NCBI GenBank assembly: GCA_965221065.1
Contig: OZ244861.1
Coordinates: forward strand, 2,867,956 to 2,931,955
DNA: 64,000 bases
Direction: 5' to 3'
From: Dehalococcoidia bacterium
Lineage (GTDB): Bacteria; Chloroflexota; Dehalococcoidia; Bin125
Shown here: positions 33,641 through 64,000 of the stretch, piece by piece
How positions within the stretch are numbered: position 1 is the first letter of the stretch
Layout of the letters: every line of letters begins with the position of its first letter
The notes under the pieces: model-generated
The model's input: the letters and a program-made list of their open reading frames with translations, nothing else
What the model was told of the DNA's origin: nothing
Databases searched by the model: none
Made by a program: the position numbers and the translations under genes

Positions 33641-33717
33641 GGGCCATTAGCTCAGCAGGTTAGAGCGCAGTCCTGATAAGACTGAGGTCCCTGGTTCGAG
33701 TCCAGGATGGCCCACCA
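33641..33717 (+). tRNA. tRNA-Ile (anticodon GAT), rrn-spacer type
   Basis: GGGCCATTAGCTCAGCAGGTTAGAGCG, anticodon loop CTGATAA, GGTTCGAGTCCAGGATGGCCCACCA; 240 nt after the 16S. Confidence 0.88.
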
Positions 33718-35294
33718 TCATGTACCGAATTGCGAACTCCTTCGGCGAGCGCTACTTCAGCAGCATCTTTGCGGCCGATCGGGCTGTCTTCCGGCATCGG
33801 GATCGTGTAGTTGATCACAGCCCGTCCGGGCTCGACGTCGATCCGCTTGATGAACGTGCGCAGGAACGCCTTCGACTCGGTGATGTCGCTGGTGCGCAAG
33901 AAGTCGGCCATGTCGGCGGCGAACTCAGCCACCACCTCAGCCTTGTCCAGCAGCGTGCGCCGTTCGGCCAGAGCCTTCCTGGCCTGCTCGGCGGCTGTCT
34001 CTAACTGCTCCTTGCGCGCCATGTGCTCGCGGATGCGCGGCGCCGCGTCATCGATTTCCAGGTCGGTCTTCTCGATCACGCGCCAGATGCGGTCCAGCAT
34101 CTGGCGGATCTCGCGCAACTCCGCCTCAATCATCTCCAATCGCTCGCGCTCCTGGTGTGCGGCGCCGTCCATCTCCTCGTCCAGCATCTTGACCAACTCG
34201 CGGATGTTGCTCTCGGTCAGCACGTGGTCGCGGAGTTGGTTGAGGATCAGGGTCTCGAACCGCTTGGCGTTGAGCCGGGGCGTCTCGCAACTGCCTGAGC
34301 CGCGCTTGAGCAGCGAGCCGCAGACGTAGTAGGAGTAGCGCCCGCCCTTGGCCTCGGACGCCGTCAACTGCTTGCCGCAGAGCGCGCAAGCGACCAGACC
34401 GGAGAGCAAGTAAGGGCTGGACGCGCGGCGCGGGTTGGACTTGGCCGGCGCCCGCGCTTCGAGCATGGTTCCCACCTGCTCGAACTCTTCCTTTGAGACG
34501 ATCGCCGGCACCGCATCCTCGACTCGGACCGGCTCAGATCCGTCGGTCGCCTTCAGTCCCCAGACCAGGGTGCCCATGTAGACCTCGTTGGAGAGGATCT
34601 TGTGCACCGCGGTCTTGAGCCAGCGCTTGCCCGTGGCCGAGGGAATGCCCTCTGAGTTGAGCGTCTTCACGATCTCGAGGATGCTCTGGCCGCGCAGCGC
34701 CATCTCGAAGATGCGCCGCACGACGGCGTCCCGGGGCGGGTCGAGTTCGAGCCGAGGTCGCTGCTTGCCGCCGTCCGTGACGTAGACCTTGCGGTAGCCG
34801 AGCGGCGCGTGCGAGGCCAGGTAGAAGCCGCGCGAGGCCGACTCGCGCATCCCGCGGCGGACCTCCTGGGCGAGGTTCTCGGAGTAGAACTCGTCCACGC
34901 TCTCGATGATCGCTTCCATCAGCTTGCCGGTCGGGGTGTCGTCGGCGTGCTCGGTGATCGAGGTGACGCGGATCCCTCTGCGTCTGAGCATCGACTTGAA
35001 GGCGACCGCGTGTTCTCGCTTGCGCGTGAACCGAGAGAACTTCCAGACCAGGATCTCCTGGAACGGCGCATCCGTCCGCTGGGCTTCGTCGAGCATCTTC
35101 TGGAATTGCGGCCGGTCGGCGACGCGGCCCGACTCCGCTTCATCGACGTACTCCCGCACGACGCGGTAGCCGTTGCGCCCGGCGAAGTCGCGCAAGGCGC
35201 GCAGTTGAGCGGCGACGGAGAGGTCGACGTCCTGGCGGTCTGAAGAGACGCGGGCGTACAGCGCCGCTGGAATCTGATCGAGTGGTTGTTTCAT
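33660..35294 (-). CDS. Large serine recombinase (integrase) of integrated mobile element
   Basis: N-terminal resolvase domain ALYARVSSDRQ with catalytic Ser; recombinase domain; zinc ribbon CALCGK..YYVCGS..GSCE; long coiled-coil. AGGAG RBS. The last ~19 codons lie antisense within tRNA-Ile. Confidence 0.88.
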   Translation of the reverse strand: MKQPLDQIPAALYARVSSDRQDVDLSVAAQLRALRDFAGRNGYRVVREYVDEAESGRVADRPQFQKMLDEAQRTDAPFQEILVWKFSRFTRKREHAVAFKSMLRRRGIRVTSITEHADDTPTGKLMEAIIESVDEFYSENLAQEVRRGMRESASRGFYLASHAPLGYRKVYVTDGGKQRPRLELDPPRDAVVRRIFEMALRGQSILEIVKTLNSEGIPSATGKRWLKTAVHKILSNEVYMGTLVWGLKATDGSEPVRVEDAVPAIVSKEEFEQVGTMLEARAPAKSNPRRASSPYLLSGLVACALCGKQLTASEAKGGRYSYYVCGSLLKRGSGSCETPRLNAKRFETLILNQLRDHVLTESNIRELVKMLDEEMDGAAHQERERLEMIEAELREIRQMLDRIWRVIEKTDLEIDDAAPRIREHMARKEQLETAAEQARKALAERRTLLDKAEVVAEFAADMADFLRTSDITESKAFLRTFIKRIDVEPGRAVINYTIPMPEDSPIGRKDAAEVALAEGVRNSVHDGGPSWTRTRDLSLIRTAL

Positions 35295-35640
35295 CGGAGG
35301 TGTCCTTATCTCCTGGCCGTCTGACGGAATTGTGGCAGTTCAATGTTCGAAACATCGTAGCCGGATCAGCAGGCAGTGATCCGAGATTCTTCACCTCGCC
35401 CGGTCTGGACCTGCCTTGTTGTTGGGAGTGCTATGTCAGCGGTGACCGACCGAGGCGTCAGGCCGTGTTAGACAAAGGCTGCAACCATGCCGTTCCCTAG
35501 TGAATAGGATCTGAAGATGCGGTGAGTTTGACTCCCTTGAGCGCAGAAGGCGGCGCACGGCGGTGCTCTCACTCTGGATGGCCGACGATTGCCATACGCT
35601 GGACTCCATGTGACGAAAGGGTGGAGGAGTCAGACGCATC

Positions 35641-38600
35641 GTGAGGGGAAAGCGGAAGTCGAAGGGCAGACGAAGGAACGAGCAGAAGAGAAGTCGTCGG
35701 TCTGAATCGCCTGCAACTCCGATCCCGCGTCCTCGGCGCCAGAGTGGGCCGGCGAGGAAGGGCGCGGAACTAGAGGTACTGCAACCCAGTCCGGCGGTAG
35801 GTGACGAGTCATGGCTACCTGCAGCCTGGGAGATATCCCGCTCAGGCGCGACAGCAGGACGAGGGTTCCACTTCCAGGATGTGGTCGGTGCGTGGCTGGC
35901 TTCGCGTCTGGCATCGGGTGGCCTGAGCGCCGACAGCCTGATCCCTGAAGGTATCGACGACCTGCAAGTTGAAGGGCCTGAACCGATCCAGCTGGAGGTT
36001 AAGTCGCGTCAGACGCGAGTCGGACCATTTCCGGTCAAGGATGGCGCGCCGGTGATCTATGAGTCCCTGGTTCGGCACTCAGAGCGCTTTGGGAGCGGGC
36101 GAAAGCTGAAGGTCGTCCTCGAACAAGGATTGGTCGGCCTCGATGCTCAGGAGGACGACGGGATCAGAGCACTCCCGCTAGCCAAGGTACTTGAGGGCGT
36201 CCCAGCCCTCGGCAAGTCCGTCGCGAAGCGAATCGACGGAAGCGAACTCTCCACGGCGGAATTCGAGACCCTCACCTCACTCACTGAAGTGATCATCGGC
36301 ACTTGGGGCCAATTCCTTCAGGACACTGAGCACCACATTCGGCAGTTGGTGGCGCTCCCTCCAGCCGCCCTAGGCAGCATCTCACTCTCAATTCGGTCGA
36401 TGGTGGCCGACGCGGCCGACGCCAACGCCGACCCGGAGTTCGGGCGCCGAGTCGAACTGGACAAGACCGCTGTCATCGATCGGATAAGTGAGGCGGCAGC
36501 GTTGTTGGACATCGACTCAATTGAGACTGCGCTGAGTCGAGGAATCTGCAGTCCGCTGGACGCGACGCCGGTGGAGACTGGTGATGCGTATTACGAGGGC
36601 GTCTCCACTCAGCCGGGACACGTTGCTGCGGGGCTGGTCGTGCCACGGCCTGATCTGAGCGGGAGGGTGGTCCATGGATTGCGGGCAGAGAAGGCCGTCC
36701 TGTTGACGGGGCCATCGGGCGTGGGCAAGTCGGCGGCGATGTGGTCGCTGCCGTCAGCACTCCCTGGAGTCGTCTGGTTTCGCCTTATCCGCGTCACAGA
36801 CGCGGATCTCGCCGATATCGAGCGATTGGTTCAGGCCTACTCCACGTCATCGAGGTGGTCGGTTGGCCTGTTAGCGGACGCGGTCGGGCGGGGAGAGTTT
36901 GAAGCCTGGTCTCGATTGCGCGAGAGAATCGCCGCTATCCCTGGCGCTCTCTTGGTCGGCACGGTGCGCCGCGAGGACTTGTGCACGCTTGGTGAGCTTG
37001 CCGATTGCCACCTTGTGACCGTCGCGCTCGACGAACCAGCGGCCGAGGTCATCCATGCCGGACTGCTTCGTCGAGGTGCCACCTCTGTCCCCTATTGGCG
37101 AGAGGCGTATGAAAAATCGGACGGTCTCACGATGGAGTTCACGTATCTACTGACACGCGGTGCACGGCTGCGCGATGTCGTTGCCGATCAGGTCGGCGAC
37201 CGGGTACGACAGGGTCGCGAACTCGAGCTGCAAGTTCTTGCGCTCGTGTCGACCGCTGATCGCTGGTCTGCCTCGGTGCCCACCCCTGAACTGCAAGAGC
37301 GGCTTCAAGTCGATGCTTTTGAGCTCAAGGCCGCCATGGCACGCCTCGTCGAGGAGCATCTCGTCGTCGACCGCGGCGGCAGCGTCAGCGGCGTGCACCA
37401 GGTCAGATCTGAAGCGATTTCAGAAGCGATTCATGAGTACCCGCCCCCGCTTCTGAGCGATACTGTCTCCGCCGCCCTGAAGATGCTCCGAGTCGAGGAG
37501 CTCTCTCGCTTCGCGTATGAGGCGCTGCGCGATGTGCCAGATCTGGAATCCCTCGTGCTAGGGACCCTACGAGACATGGGTCAGGAGGACATTGAACAGT
37601 TGCTAGCCGGTCTTCGGGCCTTGGAGATGGTCGACTTTCACCGACAAGCGTCGGCGTGGGCCGAAATCACGGAGCGGCACGAAGTGCCGCCGGCGCATCG
37701 TCCACTCGTGTTGGAATTCACCGCAGCCAGCTTGGACTTTCCGGATCTCTTTCCGCAGTCGCTTGTCTCGGCAAGCGAAGAGATCCGCGAGCTGCCAGTG
37801 CAAAGCACGATGCGCGACAACTTGCTTGAGATGTTTGGGTTGGAGCAGATCGCTATTGCATTGAACACGGTGTCTGACCCGAAGGAATGCGCCCGTCTGC
37901 TCAGAGCGGCGCGGGGCACGTCTGTGGATTGGGCTCCATTGGTTGAGTCGCTAGAGAGTTCCTCAACCCTGCCTAGCGCCCTCGAACACGCCGAAACCAG
38001 TGAACTGAGCGAGTGTGTTGAGGCGGCGCGCGATGTGTCCGTGAGTCTGGCGGAAGCGGTTGTGCATGCTGCCGGCGGCGTAGAGGCCGTGATGCAACGG
38101 ATTCGCATAGGAGATCCATGGCTCCGTGAGCTGAAGATCGAGCGCGTAGAGGGCCGAACAATAGGTTTAGCTCGATACCTCCACGTCTCGTATGACCAGC
38201 AGGACGATGCCCGTGATCGCTCCGTCGCCCTTGGACGCCAACTGCTGAGGCTCTTGCCATCAATCGACCAAGTCGACATCAAACCCTTGGGTCCAGACGG
38301 CGAGGTTCTCAAGATAGGAGGTCAGGAAGTCGCATCCTCTGGATTGCTGCGTCGTTACGATCATGGTTCGGTGGCGATCAGCTGGAATCGTCAGCGGTTC
38401 CAACTCGCACAGTCGTTGCTCGGTGTTTCCGAGACCGAAAGACTGAGCGAACTGGCCAGGCTTCTCGGAGAAACTGCGGCACTTTGTCGAGATTACGGTG
38501 CGGAGTTGGTTAGGCCTTCTGGTCAGTTGAGCGAGACTGAGCGCCTGAATGAGCGTCGGATGCGCATTGACGCGCAAGCTAGAGCGATTCCCCCTCCGCG

Positions 38601-39726
38601 AGGAGACGATCAATTCGATGAGCCCCAAAGGGAGGACCAGGTTGGCGACGCGCCGGACGGGGATCTGTCGTCCTTCATTACGAACATCACGGATAAGAGC
38701 CTGCCCAGACTCCATCACCCCCAACAATGGACCGCACTTTCGGCCTGGCTCAGCGACACCGTGCTGCGGAAGAACGTGGACCACTTCGGTGAGTTGGACT
38801 GGCGGCTGGTCGGCCTCGACGGCCCGCCAGATGCACTAGGTGAGATCTCAGAAACCTTGGATCATATTGACGCTGTGTTGCGCGCAGTTGTCGCAGATCC
38901 GACTGCCATCAGCGCGATTCTGAACGAAGCACGGCGGGGCAATCGGAGGAATGCACTCGCACGCGCTGCTGACGTAGCAAGGCGAGTGTCCCAGAAACAG
39001 ACAAGGCAACGACTCTTGGTGATCGAGACGGCATTGCGCTCGGTCGTGGAGGACGTCGACCTCTATTGGCTCGACAGCGATCGGCGCAGAGGGCTATCCG
39101 AAAGCTTCGCGGTCGGAGTCTCTGTCAGCTCATTGGTCGAATGGAATGCCGCGCTGGAATTGCTTCTTGAAGAAGTTGGCGAGCTTCGCAAGCCAGCCGA
39201 GACTCCGATCATCGCGCCAATCCTAAGGGGCAAGACGGCTTGGAGATTCGCGGTTCAGCTGGTGCCTCAGCCCTGGCCGGTAACAGAGCCCGGCGAGTTT
39301 GAGCGACTGCTGCCTGCACCGATCGAGGAGCGTTTGACTGAACAAGTCGTCAAGTGCCACTCGGCGCTTCAGGTTTTGTCTGGGATCTCGGTTCTGGGTG
39401 TCGATGGGGAGATAGACACGAGACTGAGTCCCGTTGTGGAGCAGGCAGTTCAGGAAGTTACTAAGGCCAATGCGTTGATTCTGGAACTAGGTTCTGATGA
39501 CGTGATCTTGGAGATCGGCATGTGGTTGCGAGAAATTGCCAATCAAGTGAACGCTGAGCTAAAGGGGGACGCCGAACCGGGTGAGTACGCGGCAAATGTC
39601 TGGTCGGGTGCATTTGCCGCCCCATCGCCGGATAGCGAGACATTGAACACTGTTCTCGCCCTCAGCCTGGAGTGGGATGCTAGTCCCGACGGGGCTTTGG
39701 CTCTACTAGAGACGTTGATTCCGTAG
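35641..39726 (+). CDS. Giant STAND-like P-loop NTPase (1361 aa) with putative N-terminal PD-(D/E)xK-like nuclease region; Avs-like antiviral ATPase candidate
   Basis: Walker A VLLTGPSGVGKSAAMW. About 50 aa later hhhhD (SVGLLADAVG). About 25 aa later LLVGTVRRE (TxR). The N-terminal IDDLQVEG..IQLEVKSRQ is a D..E-x-K-like motif. GTG start with GGAGGAG RBS, immediately next to the integrase. Confidence 0.6.
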   Translation: MRGKRKSKGRRRNEQKRSRRSESPATPIPRPRRQSGPARKGAELEVLQPSPAVGDESWLPAAWEISRSGATAGRGFHFQDVVGAWLASRLASGGLSADSLIPEGIDDLQVEGPEPIQLEVKSRQTRVGPFPVKDGAPVIYESLVRHSERFGSGRKLKVVLEQGLVGLDAQEDDGIRALPLAKVLEGVPALGKSVAKRIDGSELSTAEFETLTSLTEVIIGTWGQFLQDTEHHIRQLVALPPAALGSISLSIRSMVADAADANADPEFGRRVELDKTAVIDRISEAAALLDIDSIETALSRGICSPLDATPVETGDAYYEGVSTQPGHVAAGLVVPRPDLSGRVVHGLRAEKAVLLTGPSGVGKSAAMWSLPSALPGVVWFRLIRVTDADLADIERLVQAYSTSSRWSVGLLADAVGRGEFEAWSRLRERIAAIPGALLVGTVRREDLCTLGELADCHLVTVALDEPAAEVIHAGLLRRGATSVPYWREAYEKSDGLTMEFTYLLTRGARLRDVVADQVGDRVRQGRELELQVLALVSTADRWSASVPTPELQERLQVDAFELKAAMARLVEEHLVVDRGGSVSGVHQVRSEAISEAIHEYPPPLLSDTVSAALKMLRVEELSRFAYEALRDVPDLESLVLGTLRDMGQEDIEQLLAGLRALEMVDFHRQASAWAEITERHEVPPAHRPLVLEFTAASLDFPDLFPQSLVSASEEIRELPVQSTMRDNLLEMFGLEQIAIALNTVSDPKECARLLRAARGTSVDWAPLVESLESSSTLPSALEHAETSELSECVEAARDVSVSLAEAVVHAAGGVEAVMQRIRIGDPWLRELKIERVEGRTIGLARYLHVSYDQQDDARDRSVALGRQLLRLLPSIDQVDIKPLGPDGEVLKIGGQEVASSGLLRRYDHGSVAISWNRQRFQLAQSLLGVSETERLSELARLLGETAALCRDYGAELVRPSGQLSETERLNERRMRIDAQARAIPPPRGDDQFDEPQREDQVGDAPDGDLSSFITNITDKSLPRLHHPQQWTALSAWLSDTVLRKNVDHFGELDWRLVGLDGPPDALGEISETLDHIDAVLRAVVADPTAISAILNEARRGNRRNALARAADVARRVSQKQTRQRLLVIETALRSVVEDVDLYWLDSDRRRGLSESFAVGVSVSSLVEWNAALELLLEEVGELRKPAETPIIAPILRGKTAWRFAVQLVPQPWPVTEPGEFERLLPAPIEERLTEQVVKCHSALQVLSGISVLGVDGEIDTRLSPVVEQAVQEVTKANALILELGSDDVILEIGMWLREIANQVNAELKGDAEPGEYAANVWSGAFAAPSPDSETLNTVLALSLEWDASPDGALALLETLIP

Positions 39727-39851
39727 TCAGGTTGAGACTTTCGTGGCACCGTCATCATCCTTGGACACGGCAGCAGGGGGCACCATCGCGCAGAAGTCCC
39801 AAATCTGGACCGAGGCAATGCGCTCTTCGGAGGCTCTGGAGACCAAGCCGA

Positions 39852-40778
39852 CTAGGCGGACGAGCGCCTCCGCATGATTGGATCGGCCCCTCGAAGCACC
39901 TCAATGGCGTCTTTCACGCTGCCGAAGACGAGAGCCGTGAGATGACAGATCATCAAGGCTTCGCATTGCCATCGAAGCCGGTACAGATCAGCCCCTCGAA
40001 CGACAAACTGCTCATGGCGCTCAGTGTGATGGACGTTGAAGTTTCGCGTTGCCTGCACGCGCTTGGCAAAGTCGGCGCAGTCCCCATTGAGTTCCAAGAG
40101 ATCCGCGAAGGGTTCACACAGCCGCCGGATGCGACTCGGAAGGCCTGCGCTCACCCCGATCCCGAAAGCTGGAGCATAGGTGTCAAGGGCTTCCACGACC
40201 TTAAGGAACTGAAGGTCGCCAGGCAGTACGCCATCGCCATATCGGGCGTCGAAGAACAGGCCGAACGGCTGTGGCCACCCGCGATAAGCAGCAATCCAGT
40301 TGGCCAGCGCGGCTGAGAGGCCGCCGGGAAGGTCTTGATGGGAAAACGTCGCTAGCCAGTGCTTGACGTTCGGCCCTTCGGTGCTGTGTTGCCTGGACTC
40401 GAAGAAAATCTGCACTTGAGTTCGATGGTCTTGGTTGGTGTCGATTGTGTTGTCGTGGGCGGCGAGATAGCCATCGAGTGACGTGATCGCAACCGGATTG
40501 TCCGTGGCCAAGCAAAGGAAGTCGCGCAGACGTGCGGCCCAATCAATCAAGTCATCGATGTCCCACGAGTCGGAGGTCGAGAGGGTGAAGTGTGCCCGCT
40601 GAGTCACCTGTGCTTCGGTGGACCATGGTGAGGGACTCGGAATCGAGTACCCGAACCCGACCTTGCCTTCTACAAATGATCTATCCGCAACGGCACGGGT
40701 GCAGGAGCCTTGAACGTGATCGTGGCCTGACCTACATCGATGTCGTGCTGAGCGGAGATGCCTGACATGCCGAGCCAT
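39852..40778 (-). CDS. Hypothetical protein (308-aa ORF; possibly the 3' part of a frameshifted gene with 40670..41194)
   Basis: Only one in-frame Met, at the ORF start; overlaps the upstream ORF by ~108 nt in a different frame; no recognisable domain. Confidence 0.4.
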   Translation of the reverse strand: MARHVRHLRSARHRCRSGHDHVQGSCTRAVADRSFVEGKVGFGYSIPSPSPWSTEAQVTQRAHFTLSTSDSWDIDDLIDWAARLRDFLCLATDNPVAITSLDGYLAAHDNTIDTNQDHRTQVQIFFESRQHSTEGPNVKHWLATFSHQDLPGGLSAALANWIAAYRGWPQPFGLFFDARYGDGVLPGDLQFLKVVEALDTYAPAFGIGVSAGLPSRIRRLCEPFADLLELNGDCADFAKRVQATRNFNVHHTERHEQFVVRGADLYRLRWQCEALMICHLTALVFGSVKDAIEVLRGADPIMRRRSSA

Positions 40779-41194
40779 TCATCGAGACCTTCTATCCGGC
40801 AGGTCAATCGTTCGAAGCGGGGGCCGAGCTTGCCGAAGTGTCCGCCCACCAACAGAACATTGGCGAATATCCTGGCGGTGGCGAAAATCGCCCCACTAAC
40901 CGGTGCCTGAAGCCCGCTATCTGCTCGGAGACAACCGATTAGAGTCACTGCTCCGTGTTGCTGCGTGTATCCGAAGACTCGTCCAATCTCAGCGCCAGCC
41001 CCATGCAGCGACTCGCTGGCCAACGAAAGCAGGTCCGTGCTCATGTAACCAAAGGTCTCGAGAATGACGACGCCGCTTGTTGAGACGGTCAAGGAACCTG
41101 GCACCTGACTGGCCCGAGTACGGTCTGCCGGCAGCCAGAAGAAGCCGGAGTCACTGAACTCTGTTGTTCTCATGAATACGAGCCTAGGTGCCAC
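40670..41194 (-). CDS. Hypothetical protein (174 aa; possibly the 5' part of a frameshifted ~450-aa gene)
   Basis: ATG start; protein-like sequence; its 3' end overlaps 39852..40778. Confidence 0.4.
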   Translation of the reverse strand: MAPRLVFMRTTEFSDSGFFWLPADRTRASQVPGSLTVSTSGVVILETFGYMSTDLLSLASESLHGAGAEIGRVFGYTQQHGAVTLIGCLRADSGLQAPVSGAIFATARIFANVLLVGGHFGKLGPRFERLTCRIEGLDEWLGMSGISAQHDIDVGQATITFKAPAPVPLRIDHL

Positions 41195-41447: not shown

Positions 41448-42227
41448 TCACTCCCTGACTATCCCCGTTCCAGCCTGTCGCCACTCGGCATGCACGATGC
41501 AGGCGTCAAGCCGAACGCGGCGTACCGTGACCTTGGCGTCAGAGCGATCCAAGGCGACGACAGCTGCCTCCGCGCCATTGACGAGACAGGGAATGGCGGG
41601 GGCGTCGCTGGCAAACGCCTCAATCGGAGAATCGTGAATCGAGTCGAAGATGCTGGTCGGCACTTCGACCAGCTGATAGTGGTGCGGCACGGCGTCTGCC
41701 GCCTCGCGAAACGCGCGCAGCATGACGATCTGCGTCACGTGCTCCTGGTATTCGCGGAAGAGCGCCTGGGTGCGCTGACGCCGATCTCTCGCGGACCTGA
41801 CGTCCTGAATCCAAGCCGCTTCGGTCAGTTTGGAGATGTGCAGGAACGTAGGCGACAGTCTCCTGGCGGCGGTTGATTTGAGCGAGAGTCGCCGCACAGG
41901 CTCGTCACCTGGATAGACGGCGAGGTCCAGGAAGCGATGGGTGGCCGACTCCGGCGTTTCGACTCGCCAGCCGATGTGCTCGCAGGCGTTCTGGAAGACC
42001 GACTCGAAAGACTTGAGACCGAGCGGAACCGTAGTCGCGCTGTGGTGAACCGAAAGCGCCAACCCAAAGTACTCGATCCAGTCCGGCTGCTCTGTGAGCC
42101 AGGTGCCGCGCGCCTTGATCTCCGCCTGTGGTGCATCGGACAACGAGTCGACGACCTGGGCGACGAACTCGATCTGCACCGGCGAGAACGTCTCAAGCGT
42201 GGCCTTGAGTTCTTCCAGCGTCAGCAT
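41448..42227 (-). CDS. Putative Type II restriction endonuclease (assigned by position only)
   Basis: Its start overlaps the methyltransferase stop (ATGCTGA at 42221..42227); 259 aa; weak D..(S/E)xK-like stretch FLDLAVYPGDEPVRRLSLKS; no database support. Confidence 0.4.
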   Translation of the reverse strand: MLTLEELKATLETFSPVQIEFVAQVVDSLSDAPQAEIKARGTWLTEQPDWIEYFGLALSVHHSATTVPLGLKSFESVFQNACEHIGWRVETPESATHRFLDLAVYPGDEPVRRLSLKSTAARRLSPTFLHISKLTEAAWIQDVRSARDRRQRTQALFREYQEHVTQIVMLRAFREAADAVPHHYQLVEVPTSIFDSIHDSPIEAFASDAPAIPCLVNGAEAAVVALDRSDAKVTVRRVRLDACIVHAEWRQAGTGIVRE

Positions 42228-43168
42228 GCGCCTGCCAGTCTTCGCTCGATTAGGTCCACGAAGGCGCGCTTCAACTCAATCCCCACCCACTTACGGTTCA
42301 ATTCGTCCGCGGCCAGGAGCGTGGTTCCGGAGCCTGCGTACGGGTCAAGGACGACGCTGCCCATCTGACTGGTGATCGCGATGCATCGCCGCGCCAGGGA
42401 GAGCGGCATCATGGCTGGATGATCGTCCGTGTCTCCGTTGGGCCGCTGCAGCGGTTCGGTCGGAATCTCCCAGACGCTGCGCAGTCGCCTGCCTCGCGGA
42501 CCCTTCACAGCGTCGATGTCGTAGTAGTAGTCCTGGGACTTGGATAGCAGGAAAATCGTTTCGTGCGCCTTGGTCGGACGGTCGCGGACTGACTCCGGGT
42601 GCGCGTTCGGCTTGGACCAGATCACTTCCGCACGGACCCACCAACCGGCGTCCTGGAGCGCGAGCGCCAACCGCCAGGGCACTCCGATCAGGTCCTTTGG
42701 CTTGAGTCCCTCGGGTGTCGGCGGGCGGACGCTCATCGCGCGCGCCCGGTTCTTGCGATCGGGCGCACGGTAGCGGCGGTTGCCAGAGGTATAGGAATCG
42801 CCCACGTTGAGCCAGACGGTTCCGTCGTCGCGCAGCACGCGCTTGACCTGCTCGAATGCGGAGACGATGCTGCAGACGTAGGCGTGCAGGCTTTCGTCCC
42901 TTCCAATCTGTTCGTCAACGCCATAATCTCGCAGCGACCAATACGGCGGCGATGTCAATACCGTCTGCACCGATCTGTCGGGCAGTGACTGCAGCGCCTG
43001 TTCTGCGTCGCCGTGCAGGAGCGTCGATTGGCAGATGTCGTCGAAACGCGAGTGCTCGAAGTCGTCAATGCGTCTGTAAGGGCTGCGACGGTTGGTGGCG
43101 AGTCGGGTACCGCGCGAGCTGAACTCTGCGACTTGTTTGGCCCCGATGGCTGTCTGGTCGTCTTTCAC
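42221..43168 (-). CDS. DNA methyltransferase, beta-class (N6-adenine or N4-cytosine)
   Basis: Motif IV VLTSPPYW precedes motif I VLDPYAGSGTT; this order is characteristic of beta-class amino-MTases; 315 aa. Confidence 0.8.
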   Translation of the reverse strand: MKDDQTAIGAKQVAEFSSRGTRLATNRRSPYRRIDDFEHSRFDDICQSTLLHGDAEQALQSLPDRSVQTVLTSPPYWSLRDYGVDEQIGRDESLHAYVCSIVSAFEQVKRVLRDDGTVWLNVGDSYTSGNRRYRAPDRKNRARAMSVRPPTPEGLKPKDLIGVPWRLALALQDAGWWVRAEVIWSKPNAHPESVRDRPTKAHETIFLLSKSQDYYYDIDAVKGPRGRRLRSVWEIPTEPLQRPNGDTDDHPAMMPLSLARRCIAITSQMGSVVLDPYAGSGTTLLAADELNRKWVGIELKRAFVDLIERRLAGAC

Positions 43169-49805: not shown

Positions 49806-49877
49806 CCCGGCCCCGACGGGCCCAACGGCGGCCCTCGTCCGGCCTGCTGCGCTTACAGGAACACTTGTACTACGATG

Positions 49878-51089: not shown

Positions 51090-51143
51090 GTGCGGTGCTC
51101 AGGCGATCTCTCCACGATGCAGGGCATCATCAGGTGATGCGAC

Positions 51144-56673: not shown

Positions 56674-57135
56674 ATGACTGCAGCAACCACCGCGACCGCT
56701 ATCTCGATCCCTCCCAGCCCGACGCTGGAGGAACTGGTCGACCGGCTGATCGACGCCGTCTTCGGCCTCGACCCCGCCGTTCCCGCCCGCACATCGCCGG
56801 CACGCGCGATCCACGAGGCGAGACGCCTCCGGCAGACCGGCGAACTCGACCAGGCGCTCGCCGTCTTCGCCGAGCTCGACCTGGCGGAGGCGACCGAGGG
56901 CGAAATGCGCTGGACCACCGCCGAGTTCCTCGACCTGGCCCGGCGACGCTTCGGCGGCGAAGACGCCCGGCTCTACCGCCAGGGCACGGGACGGGCCGCC
57001 ATCCTCACACCGCTCGACGACGACGAGATGTTCGAAGTCTGCGCCGTCATGGGCATGCGCTGGCGGCCGGGCAAGCTCGTCTCGCGGCGCAGCCTCAGAG
57101 GACTGAGACCCCTGCGTAAAGGCGGTCCCGGATGA
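56674..57135 (+). CDS. Hypothetical protein (153 aa)
   Basis: ATG with a GGAGA-like upstream; its stop overlaps the primase start (ATGA at 57132). Confidence 0.45.
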   Translation: MTAATTATAISIPPSPTLEELVDRLIDAVFGLDPAVPARTSPARAIHEARRLRQTGELDQALAVFAELDLAEATEGEMRWTTAEFLDLARRRFGGEDARLYRQGTGRAAILTPLDDDEMFEVCAVMGMRWRPGKLVSRRSLRGLRPLRKGGPG

Positions 57136-58202
57136 CCACCGCGCACGTCAACGTCGACATCCCGGCGCTCAAGCGACGCCACCCGCTCGGCCCGGTGGTC
57201 GAGGCGGCCGGCGTCGAACTGCGCGGCCGGGGCCGCGTGCGCCAGGGCCTCTGCCCCTTCCACGAGGAGACGGAGGGCAGCTTCACCGTCTACGCCGATA
57301 CGCAGCGTTGGTATTGCTTCGGCTGCGGTCTGGGCGGCGACGTGCTGGACTTCATCCAGCGCACAGACGGCGTCGACCTGCCCGAGGCGATCCGGCGGTT
57401 GGACGCCTCCCCTGAGCGACCAGCAACGACGGCCGCTCCGCCGCCAGCGCCGAGTGCGCCCGAGCCGGTGCCGCTGCGCGACACGGCTCTGCTGACGGCT
57501 GCGTTGCGTTGCTACGCGCGGCAGTTGCAGCTCTGCGAGCCGGCCCAGGCCTACCTCGCTTCGCGCGGGATCTCAGCCGACGCCGGGCGGCGCCTGGGGC
57601 TGGGCTACTCAAGCGGGCATGGGTTGCACTCGTGGCTGACGGACGCCGGCTTCGACGGACGGCGGGTGCTCGACAGCGGCCTGGTCTCGGAGGGCCGCGA
57701 GCGGTTCCGAGGCATGATCGTCGTCCCTGAGTTCGTTGGCGCCTGCCCCGTGCTCAGACACGGGGGTCGCGTCCACTGGCTCGCCGGCCGAGCCCTCCAT
57801 CCCCAGGCAAGGCCGCGCTTCCAGGCGCTGCCCGGATCCAAGCCGGTGCTCGGACTCTCGCGGCTGCCCGCGGCGTCGCCCTGGATCGTCGTCACGGAAG
57901 GCCTGTTCGACTGGCTGCTGCTGGCCGGCTGGGGCCTGCCCGCCGTGGCCGCGCTCGGTACCCAAAGGATGGACCGTCTGGCTTCCTCCCTACAGGACCA
58001 GGCCCGCCTCTTCCTCGCCTTCGACGCCGACGAGGCGGGAGGCGCAGCCGCGAACCAGCTCTCGGACCTGCTCGGCCATCACCGGACCGCGCTCGTGACG
58101 TTGCCTCGGGGCGTGTCCGATGTCGGCGAACTGGGCCGAGACCACCACGGCCGTGCGGTCTTCCTCAGCCTGCTCAACCGAGCGGCGCGCGGCGCGCGCT
58201 AA
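57132..58202 (+). CDS. DNA primase (DnaG-type CHC2 zinc finger plus TOPRIM)
   Basis: CPFHEETEGSFTVYADTQRWYCFGCGLGGDVLDF zinc finger; TOPRIM WIVVTEGLFDWLLLAGWGLPAVAALGTQ..FLAFDADEAG. Confidence 0.8.
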   Translation: MTTAHVNVDIPALKRRHPLGPVVEAAGVELRGRGRVRQGLCPFHEETEGSFTVYADTQRWYCFGCGLGGDVLDFIQRTDGVDLPEAIRRLDASPERPATTAAPPPAPSAPEPVPLRDTALLTAALRCYARQLQLCEPAQAYLASRGISADAGRRLGLGYSSGHGLHSWLTDAGFDGRRVLDSGLVSEGRERFRGMIVVPEFVGACPVLRHGGRVHWLAGRALHPQARPRFQALPGSKPVLGLSRLPAASPWIVVTEGLFDWLLLAGWGLPAVAALGTQRMDRLASSLQDQARLFLAFDADEAGGAAANQLSDLLGHHRTALVTLPRGVSDVGELGRDHHGRAVFLSLLNRAARGAR

Positions 58203-58376
58203 CAGCGACCACCCGGACCGGATTCGTCCCGCCTCCACTCAACAACTCTCCCCACCCACCCACCGAATAGGAGGGCCGCCTATGGCCTCTGGCCGACCGT
58301 GCTCCCGCACGGCTTCACGGTCGCCGGACTCGGCGACCGCAACCACCCGAACCCACCATCCGAACAGGAGCAAGAG

Positions 58377-59345
58377 ATGAACAACGGCAACGGAACTCAC
58401 CGCAACGGAAATGGAACCGCGACGGCGGTTCGACGGAACAGCCCGCCCCCGACTCGATCAGGGAGTAACGGCACGGCGCGAACGGGAGGAAACGGGACCC
58501 GTCCGCGAACGTCCTCGCCCACGCCGGCTGAGCGCGACCTCGCCCCGGCCTCGGTCGAGGCGCTGCACTGGGACGCGCTGGCGCCCCGTGTGACCGAGGC
58601 GCTGGGCCAGCCACTGGACCCCCAGCTGGTCTCCCAGCGCAAGGGCCGCGGCGGGCGCAAGTTCGATTACATAGAAGGCCACACCGCGATCGACCAGGCC
58701 AACCGGATCTTCGGTTTTGGCGGATGGGGCTATGAGCTGGTCGGCGACGTGAGTCTGCGCCCGATCGAGCAGACCGACTCCCGCACGGGCGAAGTGACCA
58801 GCACGCCGGCCTACGCGGCGGTCGTGCGGGTCAGCGTGCCGGGCGCGCCCCCGCGCACCGATGTCGGCTTCCAACCGGTCGCGGAGGAGTCGCCCGAAGG
58901 TCACGAAACGGCGTTCAAAGGTGCGGTCACGGACGCGCTCAAGCGCGCGTTGCGCAGCTTCGGCGACCGCTTCGGCAACGGCCTCTACGGCGACTCGCCG
59001 ACCAACAGCGGGAATCGCCGCGAATCCTCGCGACCGACCGAACGCCAACCGCAGTCCACGGCTGAACGGGAGAGCCAGCCAGCGGAGCGCCGCGGGCCGG
59101 CGCGGCGGGTCGTCCAGCCGGAACACAACGCGGCGCCCCAGCCCGGATCGGACGACGCCCAGATCCTGCGGGGGCAGCTGATCGAGCTGAGCGCCCAGCA
59201 GGGCTTCTCCGAGCAGCAGCTGCGCGACGCCGTCGAGGCCAAGACCGGACGGCCGCTGGACGAACTCGGCCCGGTCGAACTCAACCCGCTGATCGCCTCG
59301 GCCGCGGACAAGCTCGAACGCCGGCGCGCGGCCGAACTGGGCTGA
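58377..59345 (+). CDS. Rad52/Sak-family single-strand annealing protein
   Basis: DYIEGHTAIDQANRIFGFGGWGYE and KGAVTDALKRALRSFGDRFGNGLYGD closely mirror the Rad52 N-terminal domain signature (..AVTDGLKRALRSFGNALGN..); GGAG RBS. Confidence 0.75.
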   Translation: MNNGNGTHRNGNGTATAVRRNSPPPTRSGSNGTARTGGNGTRPRTSSPTPAERDLAPASVEALHWDALAPRVTEALGQPLDPQLVSQRKGRGGRKFDYIEGHTAIDQANRIFGFGGWGYELVGDVSLRPIEQTDSRTGEVTSTPAYAAVVRVSVPGAPPRTDVGFQPVAEESPEGHETAFKGAVTDALKRALRSFGDRFGNGLYGDSPTNSGNRRESSRPTERQPQSTAERESQPAERRGPARRVVQPEHNAAPQPGSDDAQILRGQLIELSAQQGFSEQQLRDAVEAKTGRPLDELGPVELNPLIASAADKLERRRAAELG

Positions 59346-59388
59346 GCCAACCCCTCCCTCCCTACCGGAATCCGGAAAGGAATCCACC

Positions 59389-60450
59389 ATGACCCTGAGC
59401 AACCCCACCCCGGCCCGCAGCCGCTCCTCGGCCTACGACCGGCCGGCGGCGCGGTTCACCGACAACGGCGGCCTGGACATCCGCGCCTCGGCGCTCGGCC
59501 AGTGCCGCCGCGCGCTCTGGTACGCGGCCACCGGGCAGCTCCAGACCAACCCGATGACGGACGAGACCAGGCTCGTGCTCGAAGCCGGACAGGCGCTCGA
59601 ACCAGTCGTCGTGCGGGCCATGCAGCGCACGTTCTGGACGGTCACCCCGTCCGACCCCGAGCAGCCCTGGCGGGTCGAAGTCGAGGCCGGAGCGGGCCTG
59701 GTCGTCAGCGGCCACCCGGACGCGGTTGGCGCGGTCGAGCTGTTCGGCGAGGAACGCGTGATCGAGGTCAAGACGCGCGGCTCGGAAGCGTTCAAGCGCT
59801 GGCGCACCCTGGGGGCCGAGCGCAGCCACCCCGAGTCGGTCGCGCAGGCGGCCTGCTACTCACTGGGCATGTTCGGCGAGTGCCGCGACGTGGTGATCGC
59901 GACCCTCGACACCGGCTCGCGGCAATGGGACTACGAGGTGGTCCCGGCCGCCCGGGCCGAACGCGCCTGGGAGGCGGCCTGCCGCAGGCTGTCGGCCCTG
60001 GCCGAGCACCACGAGGCCTGCGGCCCCGACCCGGAAGCGCTGCCCGAGCGCGACTTCGATGCCTCCGACTGGCAGTGCCAACGCTGTCCCTATCTGAACC
60101 TCTGCCAACCGGGCGAGGCGGCCAACCAGGCCGAGGAGGACCAGGACGAGGCCGAACCGGTCTCGGACGAGGCGGCGCAGACGGCGCTGCGCGAGTACGA
60201 GCAGGCCCAGTCTCAAATCAAGGCGTCCGACGCCGATAAGCGCACGGCGCTCAAGACCCTCCAGCAGTGGCTCGAAACGAAAGGAGAACCCAAGGCCAGG
60301 CTGGAGGGCTCGGCCAAGACCCGCACCGTCGGGATGGTCGCCAGCCGGCGCTACGCGGTCGACCACAAACGGCTCAACGCGCTGCTCGACCCCGAACAGC
60401 GGGCCGAGATCGTGACCGAGCAGGTCTCCGAATACCTGCGGGTCAGCTGA
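59389..60450 (+). CDS. PD-(D/E)xK exonuclease, Cas4/YqaJ-like with C-terminal Cys cluster
   Basis: GHPDAVGAVELFGEERVIEVKTRG gives D..E-x-K; C-terminal CGPD..WQCQRCPYLNLC is a 4-Cys motif like the Cas4/AddB Fe-S clusters; adjacent to the SSAP gene. Confidence 0.65.
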   Translation: MTLSNPTPARSRSSAYDRPAARFTDNGGLDIRASALGQCRRALWYAATGQLQTNPMTDETRLVLEAGQALEPVVVRAMQRTFWTVTPSDPEQPWRVEVEAGAGLVVSGHPDAVGAVELFGEERVIEVKTRGSEAFKRWRTLGAERSHPESVAQAACYSLGMFGECRDVVIATLDTGSRQWDYEVVPAARAERAWEAACRRLSALAEHHEACGPDPEALPERDFDASDWQCQRCPYLNLCQPGEAANQAEEDQDEAEPVSDEAAQTALREYEQAQSQIKASDADKRTALKTLQQWLETKGEPKARLEGSAKTRTVGMVASRRYAVDHKRLNALLDPEQRAEIVTEQVSEYLRVS

Positions 60451-60495
60451 CCTAACACCCCATCGAATCGACGCCCGCTCGACGGGCGCTTCCCA

Positions 60496-60526
60496 GGGCC
60501 GTCTTCCCGCTATCGGAAGACGGCCC
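60496..60526. other. Perfect 12-bp-stem hairpin (gggccgtcttcc cgctatc ggaagacggccc) upstream of ssb copy 1
   Basis: Read directly; preceded by a second small hairpin cgcccg-ctcga-cgggcg; a near-identical copy lies at 61013..61043. Confidence 0.6.
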
Positions 60527-60590
60527 TGCTGGTTCTCTCAATCGGCGCGAACAGTTCGCGCCACCCACGCTCTTCGAAAGGAGCACTCCG

Positions 60591-60962
60591 ATGTCACGCA
60601 CGATCAACCGAGTCGAACTCTTGGGCCGGGTCGGGAGCGATCCCGAGCTGCGCAAGACCCAGAACGGCACCGCCGTCGTCCAGCTGCGGCTGGCGACCGA
60701 CCGCCGCAGCCGGGACGAGTCGGGCGAGAGCCAGACCGACTGGCACACGGTCGTCTGCTGGGACAAGCAGGCCGAGGCCGTGGCCCAGTACGTCCACAAA
60801 GGCGAGCGGGTCTACGTCGCCGGCCGCCTGAACCACCACACCTGGGAGACCGATTCCGGCGAACGCCGCAGCCGCACCGAGGTGCACGCCTCCGAGGTGA
60901 TCTTCCTCGGCTCGTCCAACGGGCGTGGCTCCGAGAACGGAACGGAGGACTCCCCCGTCTAA
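60591..60962 (+). CDS. ssb: Single-stranded DNA-binding protein (copy 1)
   Basis: MSRTINRVELLGRVGSDPELRKTQNGTAV..WHTVVCW..AEAVAQYV.KGERVYVAGRL..W is an OB-fold SSB; AAAGGAG RBS. Confidence 0.88.
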   Translation: MSRTINRVELLGRVGSDPELRKTQNGTAVVQLRLATDRRSRDESGESQTDWHTVVCWDKQAEAVAQYVHKGERVYVAGRLNHHTWETDSGERRSRTEVHASEVIFLGSSNGRGSENGTEDSPV

Positions 60963-61012
60963 CCGACTTTCCACCACGGCAATCCGACGCCCGCGCGACG
61001 GGCGCACAGCCA

Positions 61013-61043
61013 GGGCCGTCTTCCGCCTATCGGATGACGGCCC
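61013..61043. other. Hairpin copy 2 (one stem mismatch) upstream of ssb copy 2
   Basis: gggccgtcttcc gcctatc ggatgacggccc; part of a ~520-bp tandem duplication. Confidence 0.55.
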
Positions 61044-61110
61044 TGCTCGTTCTCTCTACAGGCGCGGGCAAGACCGCGCCAAACACGCTCTTCGAAAGGA
61101 GCACATTCCG

Positions 61111-61482
61111 ATGTCACGCACGATCAACCGAGTCGAACTGCTGGGCCGGGTCGGGAGCGACCCCGAGCTGCGCAAGACACAGAACGGGACCGCCGTCGTC
61201 CAGGTGCGGTTGGCCACCGACCGCCGCAGCCGGGACGAGTCGGGCGAGACCCAGACCGACTGGCACACCGTCGTCTGCTGGGACAAGCAGGCCGAGGCCG
61301 TCGCCCAGTACGTCCAGAAGGGCGAGCGGCTCTACGTCGCCGGTCGCCTCAACCACCACACCTGGGAGACCGACTCTGGCGAACGCCGCAGCCGCACCGA
61401 GGTTCACGCCTCGGAGGTGATCTTCCTCGGTTCCTCGAACGGAACCGGCAGCCGCCCGGCGGCTGGCGAACAGCCCTTCTAG
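61111..61482 (+). CDS. ssb: Single-stranded DNA-binding protein (copy 2, tandem duplicate)
   Basis: Near-identical to copy 1 over the OB-fold domain (a handful of substitutions) and with a different C-terminal tail; same RBS context. Confidence 0.85.
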   Translation: MSRTINRVELLGRVGSDPELRKTQNGTAVVQVRLATDRRSRDESGETQTDWHTVVCWDKQAEAVAQYVQKGERLYVAGRLNHHTWETDSGERRSRTEVHASEVIFLGSSNGTGSRPAAGEQPF

Positions 61483-61615
61483 TCCCCTCCGGCGAACCGA
61501 CGCCTCTCCGCGAGGCGCACCACCCCGCATCAAGTGCGGGGCAGGCGGGGCCGCGCTCCCTCACGGGACGCGGCCCCGCTTCACCTCCAGGCCAACTCAC
61601 GAACGGACACACCCG

Positions 61616-62146
61616 ATGACCACCGCAACCCAACCCGCTTTGATCCCCTCGACCGACGACGACGAGCGCCAGGCGCTGCTCAACGCCCTGCGCCGCAACT
61701 TCAGCCTCTTGAGCGAACTCGCCATCCGCTACGAGGTCGAGACCCGGCCCGAGCGACCCGAGGACATGCCGATCATCTACCGGCCCCGGACGGTCTACGA
61801 CCTGCTGGGCGAGGAGATGTCGCGCCTCGCCCAGGAACAGGTCCGCGTACTGCTGCTCGACCGCAAGAACCGCGTCGTCGGCCAGCGCACGATCTACCAG
61901 GGCAACGGCTACTGCGCCCTGGTGCGACCGGCCGAGGTCTTCCGCCCCGCCATCGTCGAAGCGGTCCCGCACATCGTCGTCGTCCACAACCATCCTTCGG
62001 GGGCGCCGGAACCGAGCCGCGACGACATCAGGTTGACCAAGGAACTGGCCGAAGTCGGCCGGCTGCTCGCGATCGAGCTGCTCGACCACGTCGTGATCGG
62101 CTCCGACGGCTGGGTCTCGCTCAAGGAACAGGGCCTCTTCGACTGA
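61616..62146 (+). CDS. radC: RadC-like JAB/MPN domain protein
   Basis: HIVVVHNHPSGAPEPSRDD is the JAMM motif (HxHPSG..S..D); 176 aa. Confidence 0.8.
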   Translation: MTTATQPALIPSTDDDERQALLNALRRNFSLLSELAIRYEVETRPERPEDMPIIYRPRTVYDLLGEEMSRLAQEQVRVLLLDRKNRVVGQRTIYQGNGYCALVRPAEVFRPAIVEAVPHIVVVHNHPSGAPEPSRDDIRLTKELAEVGRLLAIELLDHVVIGSDGWVSLKEQGLFD

Positions 62147-62192
62147 CCCCTGAACCCCGCTCACCTCCCGAATCAACCGAAAGGAACGAGCC

Positions 62193-62891: not shown

Positions 62892-63079
62892 GTCACCGAT
62901 TCGTCACCGTCACGGTCGAGACCCGCGCCGGAGAAGACGAGATCTGCGGAGAGGAGATCACCGCGATCTACAACTTCGACCTCGCCGAAGACGGACCTGA
63001 GATCGAAGGGCGCTTCCACGAGGACATCCACGACCACCTGCTCCACCTGCTGGAGCAGTACGGGGAGGAATCCGAGTGA
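62888..63079 (+). CDS. Hypothetical small acidic protein (63 aa)
   Basis: Overlaps the upstream stop (ATGA) and is overlapped by the next gene; highly acidic. Confidence 0.4.
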   Translation: MSHRFVTVTVETRAGEDEICGEEITAIYNFDLAEDGPEIEGRFHEDIHDHLLHLLEQYGEESE

Positions 63080-63261
63080 CCGAAGCACCCGACGACAACG
63101 AGATCATCGTCACGGTCCGCCTGGGCATAGACGAAACGGCCCGCTGGTGGCTCCAACCCCAGCAGTCCAGCTGGCAGATCGCCCAGATCGCGGAAGACCT
63201 CGAAGACCACCTACTCGACCTCGTTGAGGCCGACAACGAACGAAAGGACAACACCGAATGA
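63076..63261 (+). CDS. Hypothetical small acidic protein (61 aa)
   Basis: Translationally coupled chain (overlaps on both sides); acidic. Confidence 0.4.
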   Translation: MTEAPDDNEIIVTVRLGIDETARWWLQPQQSSWQIAQIAEDLEDHLLDLVEADNERKDNTE

Positions 63262-64000
63262 GACTCGCAGGCCAACTGAAGGGCGGGTTCTACCCCACGC
63301 CGCCGCGCGTGGTCGACTACGTGCGCAAGCTGCTCGCGCCCTACCCCACCTGGGGACGGGCCAACCGCGGCAACGTGATGCGCTTGCTCGACCCCTGCTG
63401 CGGCCCGGGCGACGCCCTGCGCCAGCTGGCGGACTCGATGGGGCGCAGCGTCCCGGTCGAGACCTACGGGGTCGAACTGCACGCGGAGCGCGCGCAGCAG
63501 GCGGCGGAACAGCTCGACCACGTGCTGTCGAGCGACCTCTTCCGCTGCTCCATAGCCAACCGCACGTTCAACCTGCTCTGGCTCAACCCGCCGTACGACC
63601 ACGACAAGGAGGACAAGCGGGTCGAGCACGCGTTCTTGACGCACTGTTCCAGGTACCTGGAGCCCCAGGGAGTGCTCGTGTTCATCATCCCGAGAGCGCA
63701 GATCGCGCGGTCGGCGCGCTTCCTGACCACCAACTACGGGGAGGTCCAGGCCTGGGCCTTCCCCGAACCCGAGGTCGAGCTGTTCGACCAGGTCGTCGTC
63801 CTGGGCGAGCGCAAGGAGCATCCCAGCCCCGACGCGCGGGCGATGAACGCGCTGCTTGGGGGCATCGACGATCTGTCGCCATTGCGCTCCGACCTTCGGC
63901 CCGCCTACGACGTGCGCCACTCGCCGCCCGGCGCGGCGATGTTCACGACCCGGGTGATCGACTTCGGGAAGGCGGTCGCCGAAGCCCGCGCGCGCGGCCT
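63258..64000 (+). CDS. DNA N6-adenine methyltransferase, gamma-class (partial; continues beyond the window)
   Basis: Motif I LLDPCCGPGDAL then motif IV WLNPPYD; open to the window end. Confidence 0.7.
   Translation, partial: MRLAGQLKGGFYPTPPRVVDYVRKLLAPYPTWGRANRGNVMRLLDPCCGPGDALRQLADSMGRSVPVETYGVELHAERAQQAAEQLDHVLSSDLFRCSIANRTFNLLWLNPPYDHDKEDKRVEHAFLTHCSRYLEPQGVLVFIIPRAQIARSARFLTTNYGEVQAWAFPEPEVELFDQVVVLGERKEHPSPDARAMNALLGGIDDLSPLRSDLRPAYDVRHSPPGAAMFTTRVIDFGKAVAEARARG

Follow-up and report, generated by a model that had tools for sequence, protein, structure and literature searches.

Serine integrases are typical of phages and are thought to avoid transfer RNA (tRNA) genes. Reviews place serine-integrase elements inside protein genes (PMC5704250), and a survey of 2020, in which serine integrases lay at tRNA or transfer-messenger RNA (tmRNA) genes in 14 of 297 cases, called this use previously unreported (PMC7192596). 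Here we analyse a stretch of 64,000 nucleotides (nt) from a Dehalococcoidia bacterium (contig OZ244861.1, positions 2,867,956 to 2,931,955; hereafter the window), which runs through a 16S ribosomal RNA (rRNA) gene and a tRNA-Ile(GAT) gene into DNA headed by a large serine integrase gene. From 33712/33718 to beyond position 64000, this DNA is very probably the left part, at least 30 kilobases (kb) long, of an integrative element that was inserted by a serine integrase at the extreme 3' end of tRNA-Ile(GAT). Its integrase appears to fall in a clade centred on tRNA ends.

The closest precedent comes from the same bacterial class. The ssrA islands of Dehalococcoides carry the serine integrase DsiB, a CcrB-like recombinase of ~540 amino acids (aa) that is encoded on the reverse strand and adjoins the left attachment site, attL (McMurdie et al., 2011; PMC3146451). 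At its 3' end the gene invariably extends over both attL and the RNA gene, with the stop codon outside the island, and the integrase of the window likewise has its stop codon inside the tRNA. The ssrA target is a tRNA-like RNA with a 3' end in CCACCA (direct-repeat primer TGGTGGAGACGG; PMC3146451), and arrays of stacked islands are formed as in the family of the window; the likeness is drawn from the published description of DsiB. The systems differ in three respects. DsiB islands use ssrA, whereas the target here is a canonical tRNA-Ile and, across the family, many tRNAs. DsiB is accompanied by a small recombinase, DsiA, and by RecF, ParB and Mom, whereas the neighbours of the window integrase are a STAND-like nucleoside triphosphatase (NTPase), ApeA and a restriction-modification pair, and Pfam revealed no second resolvase-domain gene among the predicted genes scanned between 33.6 and 64 kb. 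Finally, DsiB islands were judged mobilizable only, whereas the backbone in the window is larger, includes a TraG-like ATPase and replication genes, and looks conjugative.

Other systems share single traits. The SCCmec recombinases CcrA and CcrB, too, have the 3' end of a conserved housekeeping gene as their integration site, and CcrB is the best curated family for the window integrase; SCCmec, however, employs a recombinase pair and rlmH as target instead of one recombinase and a tRNA. Tn4451 and Tn5397 (TnpX, TndX) and the multi-targeting recombinases (Durrant et al., 2022; PMC10083194) resemble the family in their many targets, short common core and inverted-repeat ends, but the insertions described here are not scattered: they lie at tRNA 3' ends in a fixed register and leave the gene intact. 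Tyrosine-integrase islands in tRNA genes, among them the actinomycete elements pSAM2 and SLP1 (PMC2440964), use the tRNA 3' end, restore the tRNA and keep the integrase adjacent, yet their enzymes belong to an unrelated family and produce direct repeats of a long tRNA 3' segment, which are neither expected nor seen here. The phage integrases Bxb1, TP901-1 and SPbeta SprA are related in domain architecture and sequence, but each is specific for a single site, which in most cases lies within a protein-coding gene. Serine recombinases of low specificity have precedents in TnpX, TndX and the multi-targeting enzymes, but to our knowledge none prefers tRNA ends. The element in the window is itself of an ordinary kind; the integrase family behind it is not.

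Results

Target site and unoccupied relatives

RNA genes were called with ARAGORN (tRNA) and Rfam (16S and tRNA). The tRNA-Ile(GAT) gene is separated from the 16S rRNA gene by a spacer of 242 nt (Table 1), and no 23S, 5S or tRNA-Ala(TGC) gene was detected by these programs in the whole window, just as an initial annotation of the sequence had described it (tRNA-Ile ~240 bp past 16S, no tRNA-Ala or 23S). The same annotation had read a large serine recombinase gene on the opposite strand as ending within the tRNA, which was borne out, with 18 codons and the stop inside. The stop codon, which it put at 33657..33659, is off by three bases, the actual TAA being the complement of 33660-33662.

The annotation had further proposed an element integrated at tRNA-Ile with attL at the tRNA, and had suggested that related genomes be compared for an empty site. 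Two such sites were found, on the long contigs L083 and L088, which were reached via the TilS gene directly upstream of 16S. Short-read contigs of closer relatives (TilS 89-98% identical) stop at or just past TilS, ahead of 16S, and are uninformative on occupancy. The gene order TilS-16S-tRNA-Ile is common to the window, L083 and L088; the 16S genes of the latter two are 98.9% and 98.0% identical to that of the window, and their tRNA-Ile genes equal the window copy at 77 of 77 nt. Both alignments stop exactly at base 33717: the three sequences agree up to and including ...GGCCCACCA and are unrelated thereafter. In L083 the tRNA is followed by genes for ThuA, coenzyme A transferases, a luciferase-like oxygenase and an alcohol dehydrogenase, in L088 by genes for a proteasome-type subunit, Alpha-E and ATP-grasp proteins; neither contig has an integrase, tRNA-Ala or 23S gene after tRNA-Ile, and the DNA 3' of the tRNA differs between the two. 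L083 and L088 are the unoccupied form of the window site, and the integrase marks one end of an element that both of them lack. [quoted passage not shown] In L025, whose 16S gene is 97.5% identical to that of the window, the 16S-tRNA-Ile site is held by a different family member with an integrase of 70% identity.

With tRNA-Ile(GAT) 242 nt past 16S, the layout is that of the classical spacer, and an insertion inside a 16S-Ile-Ala-23S operon could have parted 16S from 23S. This is scarcely credible. Directly after tRNA-Ile, L083 and L088 have host metabolic genes and no tRNA-Ala or 23S, so the 16S-tRNA-Ile unit is natively separate from 23S and no rRNA operon was split; unlinked rRNA genes have been reported for Dehalococcoidia (bioRxiv 10.1101/705046). 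The initial annotation had left the choice between an rRNA operon and a 16S unlinked from the 23S, and the empty sites uphold the second and speak against the first.

Attachment site and crossover

Relatives of the integrase were collected by a scan of one genome per species. More than 551 were found in Dehalococcoidia/Chloroflexota, several genomes having more than one copy, and the loci of the best 80 of these were compared with the window (81 loci including it). All 80 stem from metagenome-assembled genomes of Dehalococcoidia/Chloroflexota, and some of the bin names look sponge-derived.

On the integrase strand, the element-side arm of attL (P') has the sequence GGAGTTCGCAATTCGGTACATGA, which at the same time codes for the last conserved residues of the integrase, GVRNSVHD. 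This block occurs once in the window and is conserved in the family, where the arm consensus is GGAGTTCGCAGTA, followed by ~10 nt and TGGTG. One element, with integrases that are 98-100% identical, was found joined to six right-hand sequences; at all six junctions the arm is common up to TGGTGG and the sequences diverge from the following base. Both element ends are visible in L011, where they lie ~10.15 kb apart as inverted repeats that match perfectly over 21 nt, each with GGTGG at its junction, and L024 contains a palindromic attP-like site, AATTCGGTACGT-CATGGTGGGCCTAC-ACGTACCGAATT. The symmetry centre of the L011 ends and of the L024 palindrome is TGGT-GG, which equals tRNA positions 71-72. 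Inverted-repeat arms around a short crossover, with no long direct repeats, are present in these two relatives, while the far end of the window element is outside the sequence. The cut thus appears to lie within CCACCA, and the enzyme would act at a 2-bp centre near tRNA positions 71-72, a placement that was derived from alignment and may deviate by one or two bases. The tRNA gene remains whole because the element supplies its own CCACCA for the end of the gene.

Within the window, the element contains no repeat of the tRNA 3' part, no inverted arm and no second CCACCA core. A direct repeat of the tRNA 3' segment had been expected by the initial annotation as the far boundary, which was mistaken for this type of enzyme: a serine integrase leaves few common bases, and such a repeat is missing from the window because only a handful of bases were duplicated. 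As the inverted arm is absent as well, the right end is located beyond 64000, where an inverted copy of GTTCGCAATTCGGTAC, the integrase-side arm, would be expected, followed by host DNA. Two metagenome scans, for the exact arm and for palindromic attP sites, yielded 0 matches.

Left ends were also searched in the other loci via the inverted outer arm block; only that of L011 was convincing and L031 was ambiguous. The boundary in L008/L028 was considered as an element left end and rejected as not att-like. The idea that the outer GTTCG arm block mimics the T loop at a 5-bp offset was dropped, since part of the family has GTTATG.

The open 3' end of the integrase gene

The integrase consists of a Resolvase domain (PF00239, 5.7e-33, residues 10-156) with an intact catalytic-serine motif (YARVSSDRQ), a Recombinase domain (PF07508, 5.9e-24) and a Zn_ribbon_recom domain (PF13408, 7.1e-12). 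A weak Rad50-like coiled-coil match covers residues 373-457, and the protein has heptad-rich sequence. The best NCBIfam families are CcrB (1e-40; 140 bits against a family cut-off of 900 bits) and then XisF, and a sequence search of the PDB retrieved SPbeta SprA, Bxb1 and TP901-1 as relatives.

The conserved body of the protein stops near 33712, and 33660-33717 encodes a tail antisense to the tRNA; the overlap of 58 nt is made up of 18 sense codons, one base and the stop. At none of the loci does the integrase gene contain its own stop codon. The C-terminus conserved across the family is ...GV(R/M)xSVxxGG, and the point at which the reading frame closes varies with the target, from 13 to 655 nt past the junction: at Ile, Met and Val sites the stop lies within the tRNA (58 nt), at many Ala, Arg and Lys sites past the entire tRNA. 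Identical integrases bear differing tails at differing sites. The last base of the tRNA falls at integrase nt 1578, or at 1581 with one extra codon, in 51 of the 81 loci. Because the same register is kept in 50 other loci with an antisense tRNA, the overlap is not due to chance. It is a by-product of the att site, which sits at the open end of the integrase gene; the last conserved codons double as the element-side recombination arm, and the frame runs on until a chance stop.

The strictly conserved register could also be taken to indicate that the tRNA-encoded tail is selected and functional, or that the overlap serves antisense regulation of the tRNA. The C-terminus must change between the integrated and the excised state, and a regulatory use of this was speculated on for DsiB by McMurdie et al. 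We regard such a function as quite improbable, since the target dictates both the tail and the widely varying position of the stop, the same integrase has different tails at different sites, and the register is accounted for by the arm being the gene end. Given that length and sequence of the tail are set by the target, the tRNA-encoded end of the integrase is incidental read-through and no functional overlap.

One integrase family at many tRNA genes

An antisense tRNA was found at the integrase end in 51 of the 81 loci (the window and 50 of the 80 relatives), always in the same register. The targets comprise 16 anticodon types of nine amino acids and include Ile(GAT), Met(CAT), Val(TAC), Ala(GGC, TGC, CGC), Lys(TTT), Arg(CCT, CCG, TCG), Glu(CTC), Gln(CTG, TTG) and Leu(TAG). 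No tmRNA was present at the junction in the 80 related loci.

Unexpectedly, practically the same element was observed at different targets. Up to the junction, 11.56 kb of L015 (at tRNA-Ile) match L026 (at tRNA-Ala-TGC) with 99.99% identity, and the sequences beyond it are unrelated; in the pair L012 (tRNA-Ile) and L035 (a non-tRNA site), 10.77 kb are 100% identical. When integrases were clustered at 95% identity or more, 11 of 13 clusters had at least two junction types; one cluster of ten members combined Ile, Met, Lys, Ala(GGC) and Ala(TGC) with three non-tRNA junctions. The window integrase itself is 95.8% identical to that of L001, at a non-tRNA site, and 87.9% identical to that of L002, at tRNA-Met. 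Ends in CCACCA were found in 40 of 53 occupied tRNA genes versus 11 of 40 unoccupied ones in the same loci (odds ratio 8.1, p = 7e-6), and elements at Arg and Gln tRNAs carry matching other cores, TGGTA and TGGCT.

We somewhat favour the view that the integrase is part of a large undescribed clade that is not bound to a single site and targets generic tRNA 3' ends (T arm, acceptor end, encoded CCA), the choice of tRNA being made mainly by the bases around the cut, here CCACCA. In this scheme the DNA-binding domains would accept one side by these generic features, and any tRNA gene end that matches the element core could become a target, the core TGGTGG answering to the tRNA end CCACCA. The element would hop between tRNAs and between species without harm to the tRNA, while the C-terminus of its open-ended integrase changes. 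The scheme extends to a sister subfamily with an inverted core, which may insert reversed and stack tail to tail.

Two convergent integrases with overlapping 3' ends are present in ~15 of the 80 loci, the second sharing 51-56% identity with the first (L040, 10001-13143; also L005, L008, L009, L013, L018, L019, L021, L033, L049, L052, L055, L058, L062 and L069). The second integrase ends with homologous codons, and its 9-nt core is reverse-complemented, GGCCCACCA instead of TGGTGGGCC. Mirror-image backbones flank the convergent integrases in L062 and L013. These second genes may represent a sister subfamily that inserts in the opposite orientation, with the elements placed tail to tail.

Some junctions lack an intact tRNA. 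A conserved non-tRNA module of ~70 nt (GGACGGTAGACAGAACCGTCTTCGAGATGTGG...CCTTGGC) follows the TGGTGGGCC core in L011 (11580-11650) and is also seen in L020, L035, L057, L065 and L073; Rfam recognised no known RNA at either of the two non-tRNA junction types that recur. In L020 another TraG-like gene lies downstream and points the same way, and the module may mark the junction of a tandem array. In L047 (~11578-11640) the tRNA-Ile at the junction is reduced to its 3' part (anticodon loop to CCA) and is followed by unrelated DNA. This is a displaced tRNA fragment, which may stem from an element of another type that used the same tRNA.

A further tRNA gene of the window, tRNA-Val(TAC) at 21689-21765, adjoins a Met-Val-Leu-Arg tRNA cluster (19237-19712) and is unoccupied. 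Members of the integrase family occupy this tRNA in L004, L016, L030 and L066, and the alignments of the window to L004 and L066, both with the tRNA-Val cluster context, stop exactly at 21765.

Gene content of the element

The proteins of the element were compared with Pfam, NCBIfam, PHROGs, PADLOC and PDB sequences (Table 1). The initial annotation had listed defence genes, a conjugation-like ATPase and replication and recombination genes, and all of these were recovered with Pfam and PADLOC. It had also noted by eye a raised content of guanine and cytosine (GC) at ~44..60 kb, and this agrees with the measured values: 69.8% over 43329-64000, with 70-72% over roughly 44-52 kb and 56-60 kb, versus 64.1% in the host part (1-31897). 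The integrase gene has 65.3% and the segment 35295-43328 has 60.5%.

Table 1. Features at the insertion site and in the visible part of the element (positions in the window).
Feature	Position	Strand	Evidence or remarks
16S rRNA	31898..33398	+	Rfam RF00177, 1529 bits; host context
tRNA-Ile(GAT), integration target, B arm of attL, intact	33641..33717	+	ARAGORN; Rfam 70.5 bits
Large serine integrase, 544 aa	33660..35294	-	Pfam, catalytic motif
CCACCA, tRNA positions 71-76, interval predicted to hold the crossover	33712..33717	+	Sequence divergence after 33717
Element-side arm (P') of attL	33718..33745	-	Family-conserved block
STAND-like P-loop NTPase, 1361 aa, low GC, candidate defence gene	35641..39726	+	Weak AAA_16, nSTAND3 (Pfam)
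ApeA-like HEPN defence gene (PDC-S58), split	39852..41194	-	PF18862, PF18739; PADLOC PDC-S58, Cas13-ApeA
Type II restriction-modification pair	41448..43168	-	Pfam; PADLOC REase_II 7e-16, MTase_II 8e-102
Truncated paralogue (C-terminal part) of the 553-aa protein	43329..44072	-	BLASTP 41%, residues 384-538, E 8e-22
VirD4/TraG-like coupling ATPase, FtsK-HerA type, 856 aa	44350..46920	-	PF10412, PF12696, DUF87
553-aa backbone protein, faint N-terminal winged-helix signal	48144..49805	-	Homologues in 54 of 80 loci, integrase-adjacent
Coiled-coil protein, divergent from the 553-aa gene, start uncertain	49626..51089	+	Homologues beside the 553-aa gene in 18 loci
VanW-domain protein	51144..52067	-	PF04294, 1.3e-33
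Replication/recombination module	57132..60450	+	Pfam
Two SSB genes and RadC	60591..62146	+	Pfam; 300-nt direct repeat, 94% identical
DUF6094 (mad2-like) DNA methyltransferase, cut by the window end	63258..64000	+	PF19587 1.2e-25; PADLOC mad2

The low-GC segment next to the integrase is occupied by defence-type genes. The STAND-like NTPase had no PADLOC match and no homologue in the 80 related loci. The ApeA-like gene consists of two overlapping open reading frames (ORFs), 39852-40778 and 40670-41194, that are out of frame; the split could be a frameshift pseudogene or a sequencing error. The restriction-modification pair is formed by a SmaI-like endonuclease (41448-42227) and an N4/N6 methyltransferase (42221-43168). 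This block has no counterpart at its position in the other loci, and distant ApeA homologues occur elsewhere in two of them.

The high-GC part begins with the truncated paralogue of the 553-aa protein, which sits where related elements hold the gene and has matches in 44 loci. The TraG-like ATPase was identified by weak matches (PF10412, 26 bits at a cut-off of 20.5; PF12696, 22.8 bits at a cut-off of 22), and in 30 loci a homologue with 62-66% identity is located at a distance of 3-8 kb from the integrase. The 553-aa protein found no match in Pfam (also at a lax threshold), NCBIfam, PHROGs or PDB sequences, and the same searches gave no identification for the product of the neighbouring gene. 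The integrase and the 70%-GC backbone belong together because the TraG-like gene (30 loci) and the 553-aa gene (54 loci) recur 3-8 kb away from it. The low-GC region at 35.6-43.3 kb is defence cargo that was inserted between integrase and backbone and truncated one copy of the 553-aa gene.

The sharp GC steps would also be explained if at least two islands stood in tandem, an integrase and defence island followed by a separate 70%-GC element. The truncated paralogue at 43329-44072 next to a full copy at 48144-49805 is compatible with this, and stacked elements are common in the integrase family. On the other hand, the window has no internal junction, be it a second CCACCA core, an arm motif or a tRNA fragment, and the integrase, the 553-aa gene and the TraG gene are syntenic in at least 30 loci, which fits a single backbone with cargo. 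We therefore consider two islands rather doubtful, albeit a possibility of some weight, and treat the region as one element.

Further to the right, the replication/recombination module comprises a DnaG-type primase (57132-58202), a Rad52-like annealase (58299-59345) and a PD-(D/E)XK nuclease (59389-60450). The SSB pair derives from a tandem duplication of ~520 nt (60584-61403), in which the hairpin leader was doubled too (60493-60549 and 61010-61066). Around RadC and the ORF after it there are three copies of a 24-nt hairpin repeat, CCCCGCATCAAGTGCGGGGCAGGC (61523-61546, 62237-62284), which could be terminator-like or a repeat element.

Rad52, exonuclease, SSB and primase modules are common in phages, as are serine integrases; in addition, many ORFs have no assignment and the right part is beyond the window. 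The region might accordingly be a prophage of a temperate phage whose structural genes lie outside the window, but this is unlikely: no capsid, portal, terminase or tail protein was matched in the 30 kb with Pfam or PHROGs, the VirD4/TraG-like ATPase, RadC and the DUF6094 methyltransferase are typical of conjugative elements, and the family is absent from IMG/VR, the single match being 28% identical. The coupling-type ATPase, RadC, SSB and the large methyltransferase, together with the lack of virion genes and of IMG/VR members, suggest that the element is probably conjugative or mobilizable, and it may still be active today.

In the host core, a GmrSD/Schlafen-AlbA_2 defence-type gene is located upstream of TilS in L084 (4452-6710) and L088 (4466-6724), between glyoxalase and B12-binding genes. 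It is not at that position in L083, L081 and L086, which points to a small variable defence slot.

Discussion

An integrative element placed by its serine integrase at the end of tRNA-Ile accounts for the insertion point, the empty sites and the register kept throughout the family. Several points count against this interpretation or narrow it. The empty sites come from related species and not from the strain of the window. The right end is outside the window, so that the size of the element and attR are not visible. The cut position and the recognition rule were deduced by comparing sequences only; the 80 loci were picked by similarity to the window integrase, by which the target statistics are biased, and the comparison genomes are mostly metagenome-assembled. 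Conjugation is only suggested, as searches of the visible 30 kb with Pfam, NCBIfam and PHROGs recognised neither a relaxase nor genes for type IV secretion. The split ApeA gene and the truncated 553-aa copy, finally, are signs of decay or mosaicism.

For genome annotation, it follows that a 16S-tRNA-Ile unit without 23S is normal in Dehalococcoidia and no sign of disruption, and that integrase gene ends overlapping a tRNA are not to be taken as functional overlap. The clade that targets tRNA ends is abundant in environmentally important and hard-to-culture Dehalococcoidia, including sponge symbionts. If one enzyme indeed accepts many tRNA ends, this would show that serine integrases can read a structural class of targets, and the family would be a candidate integration tool for organisms with CCA-encoding tRNA genes. 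It would also explain the quick spread of defence genes and other cargo among the genomes of Dehalococcoidia.

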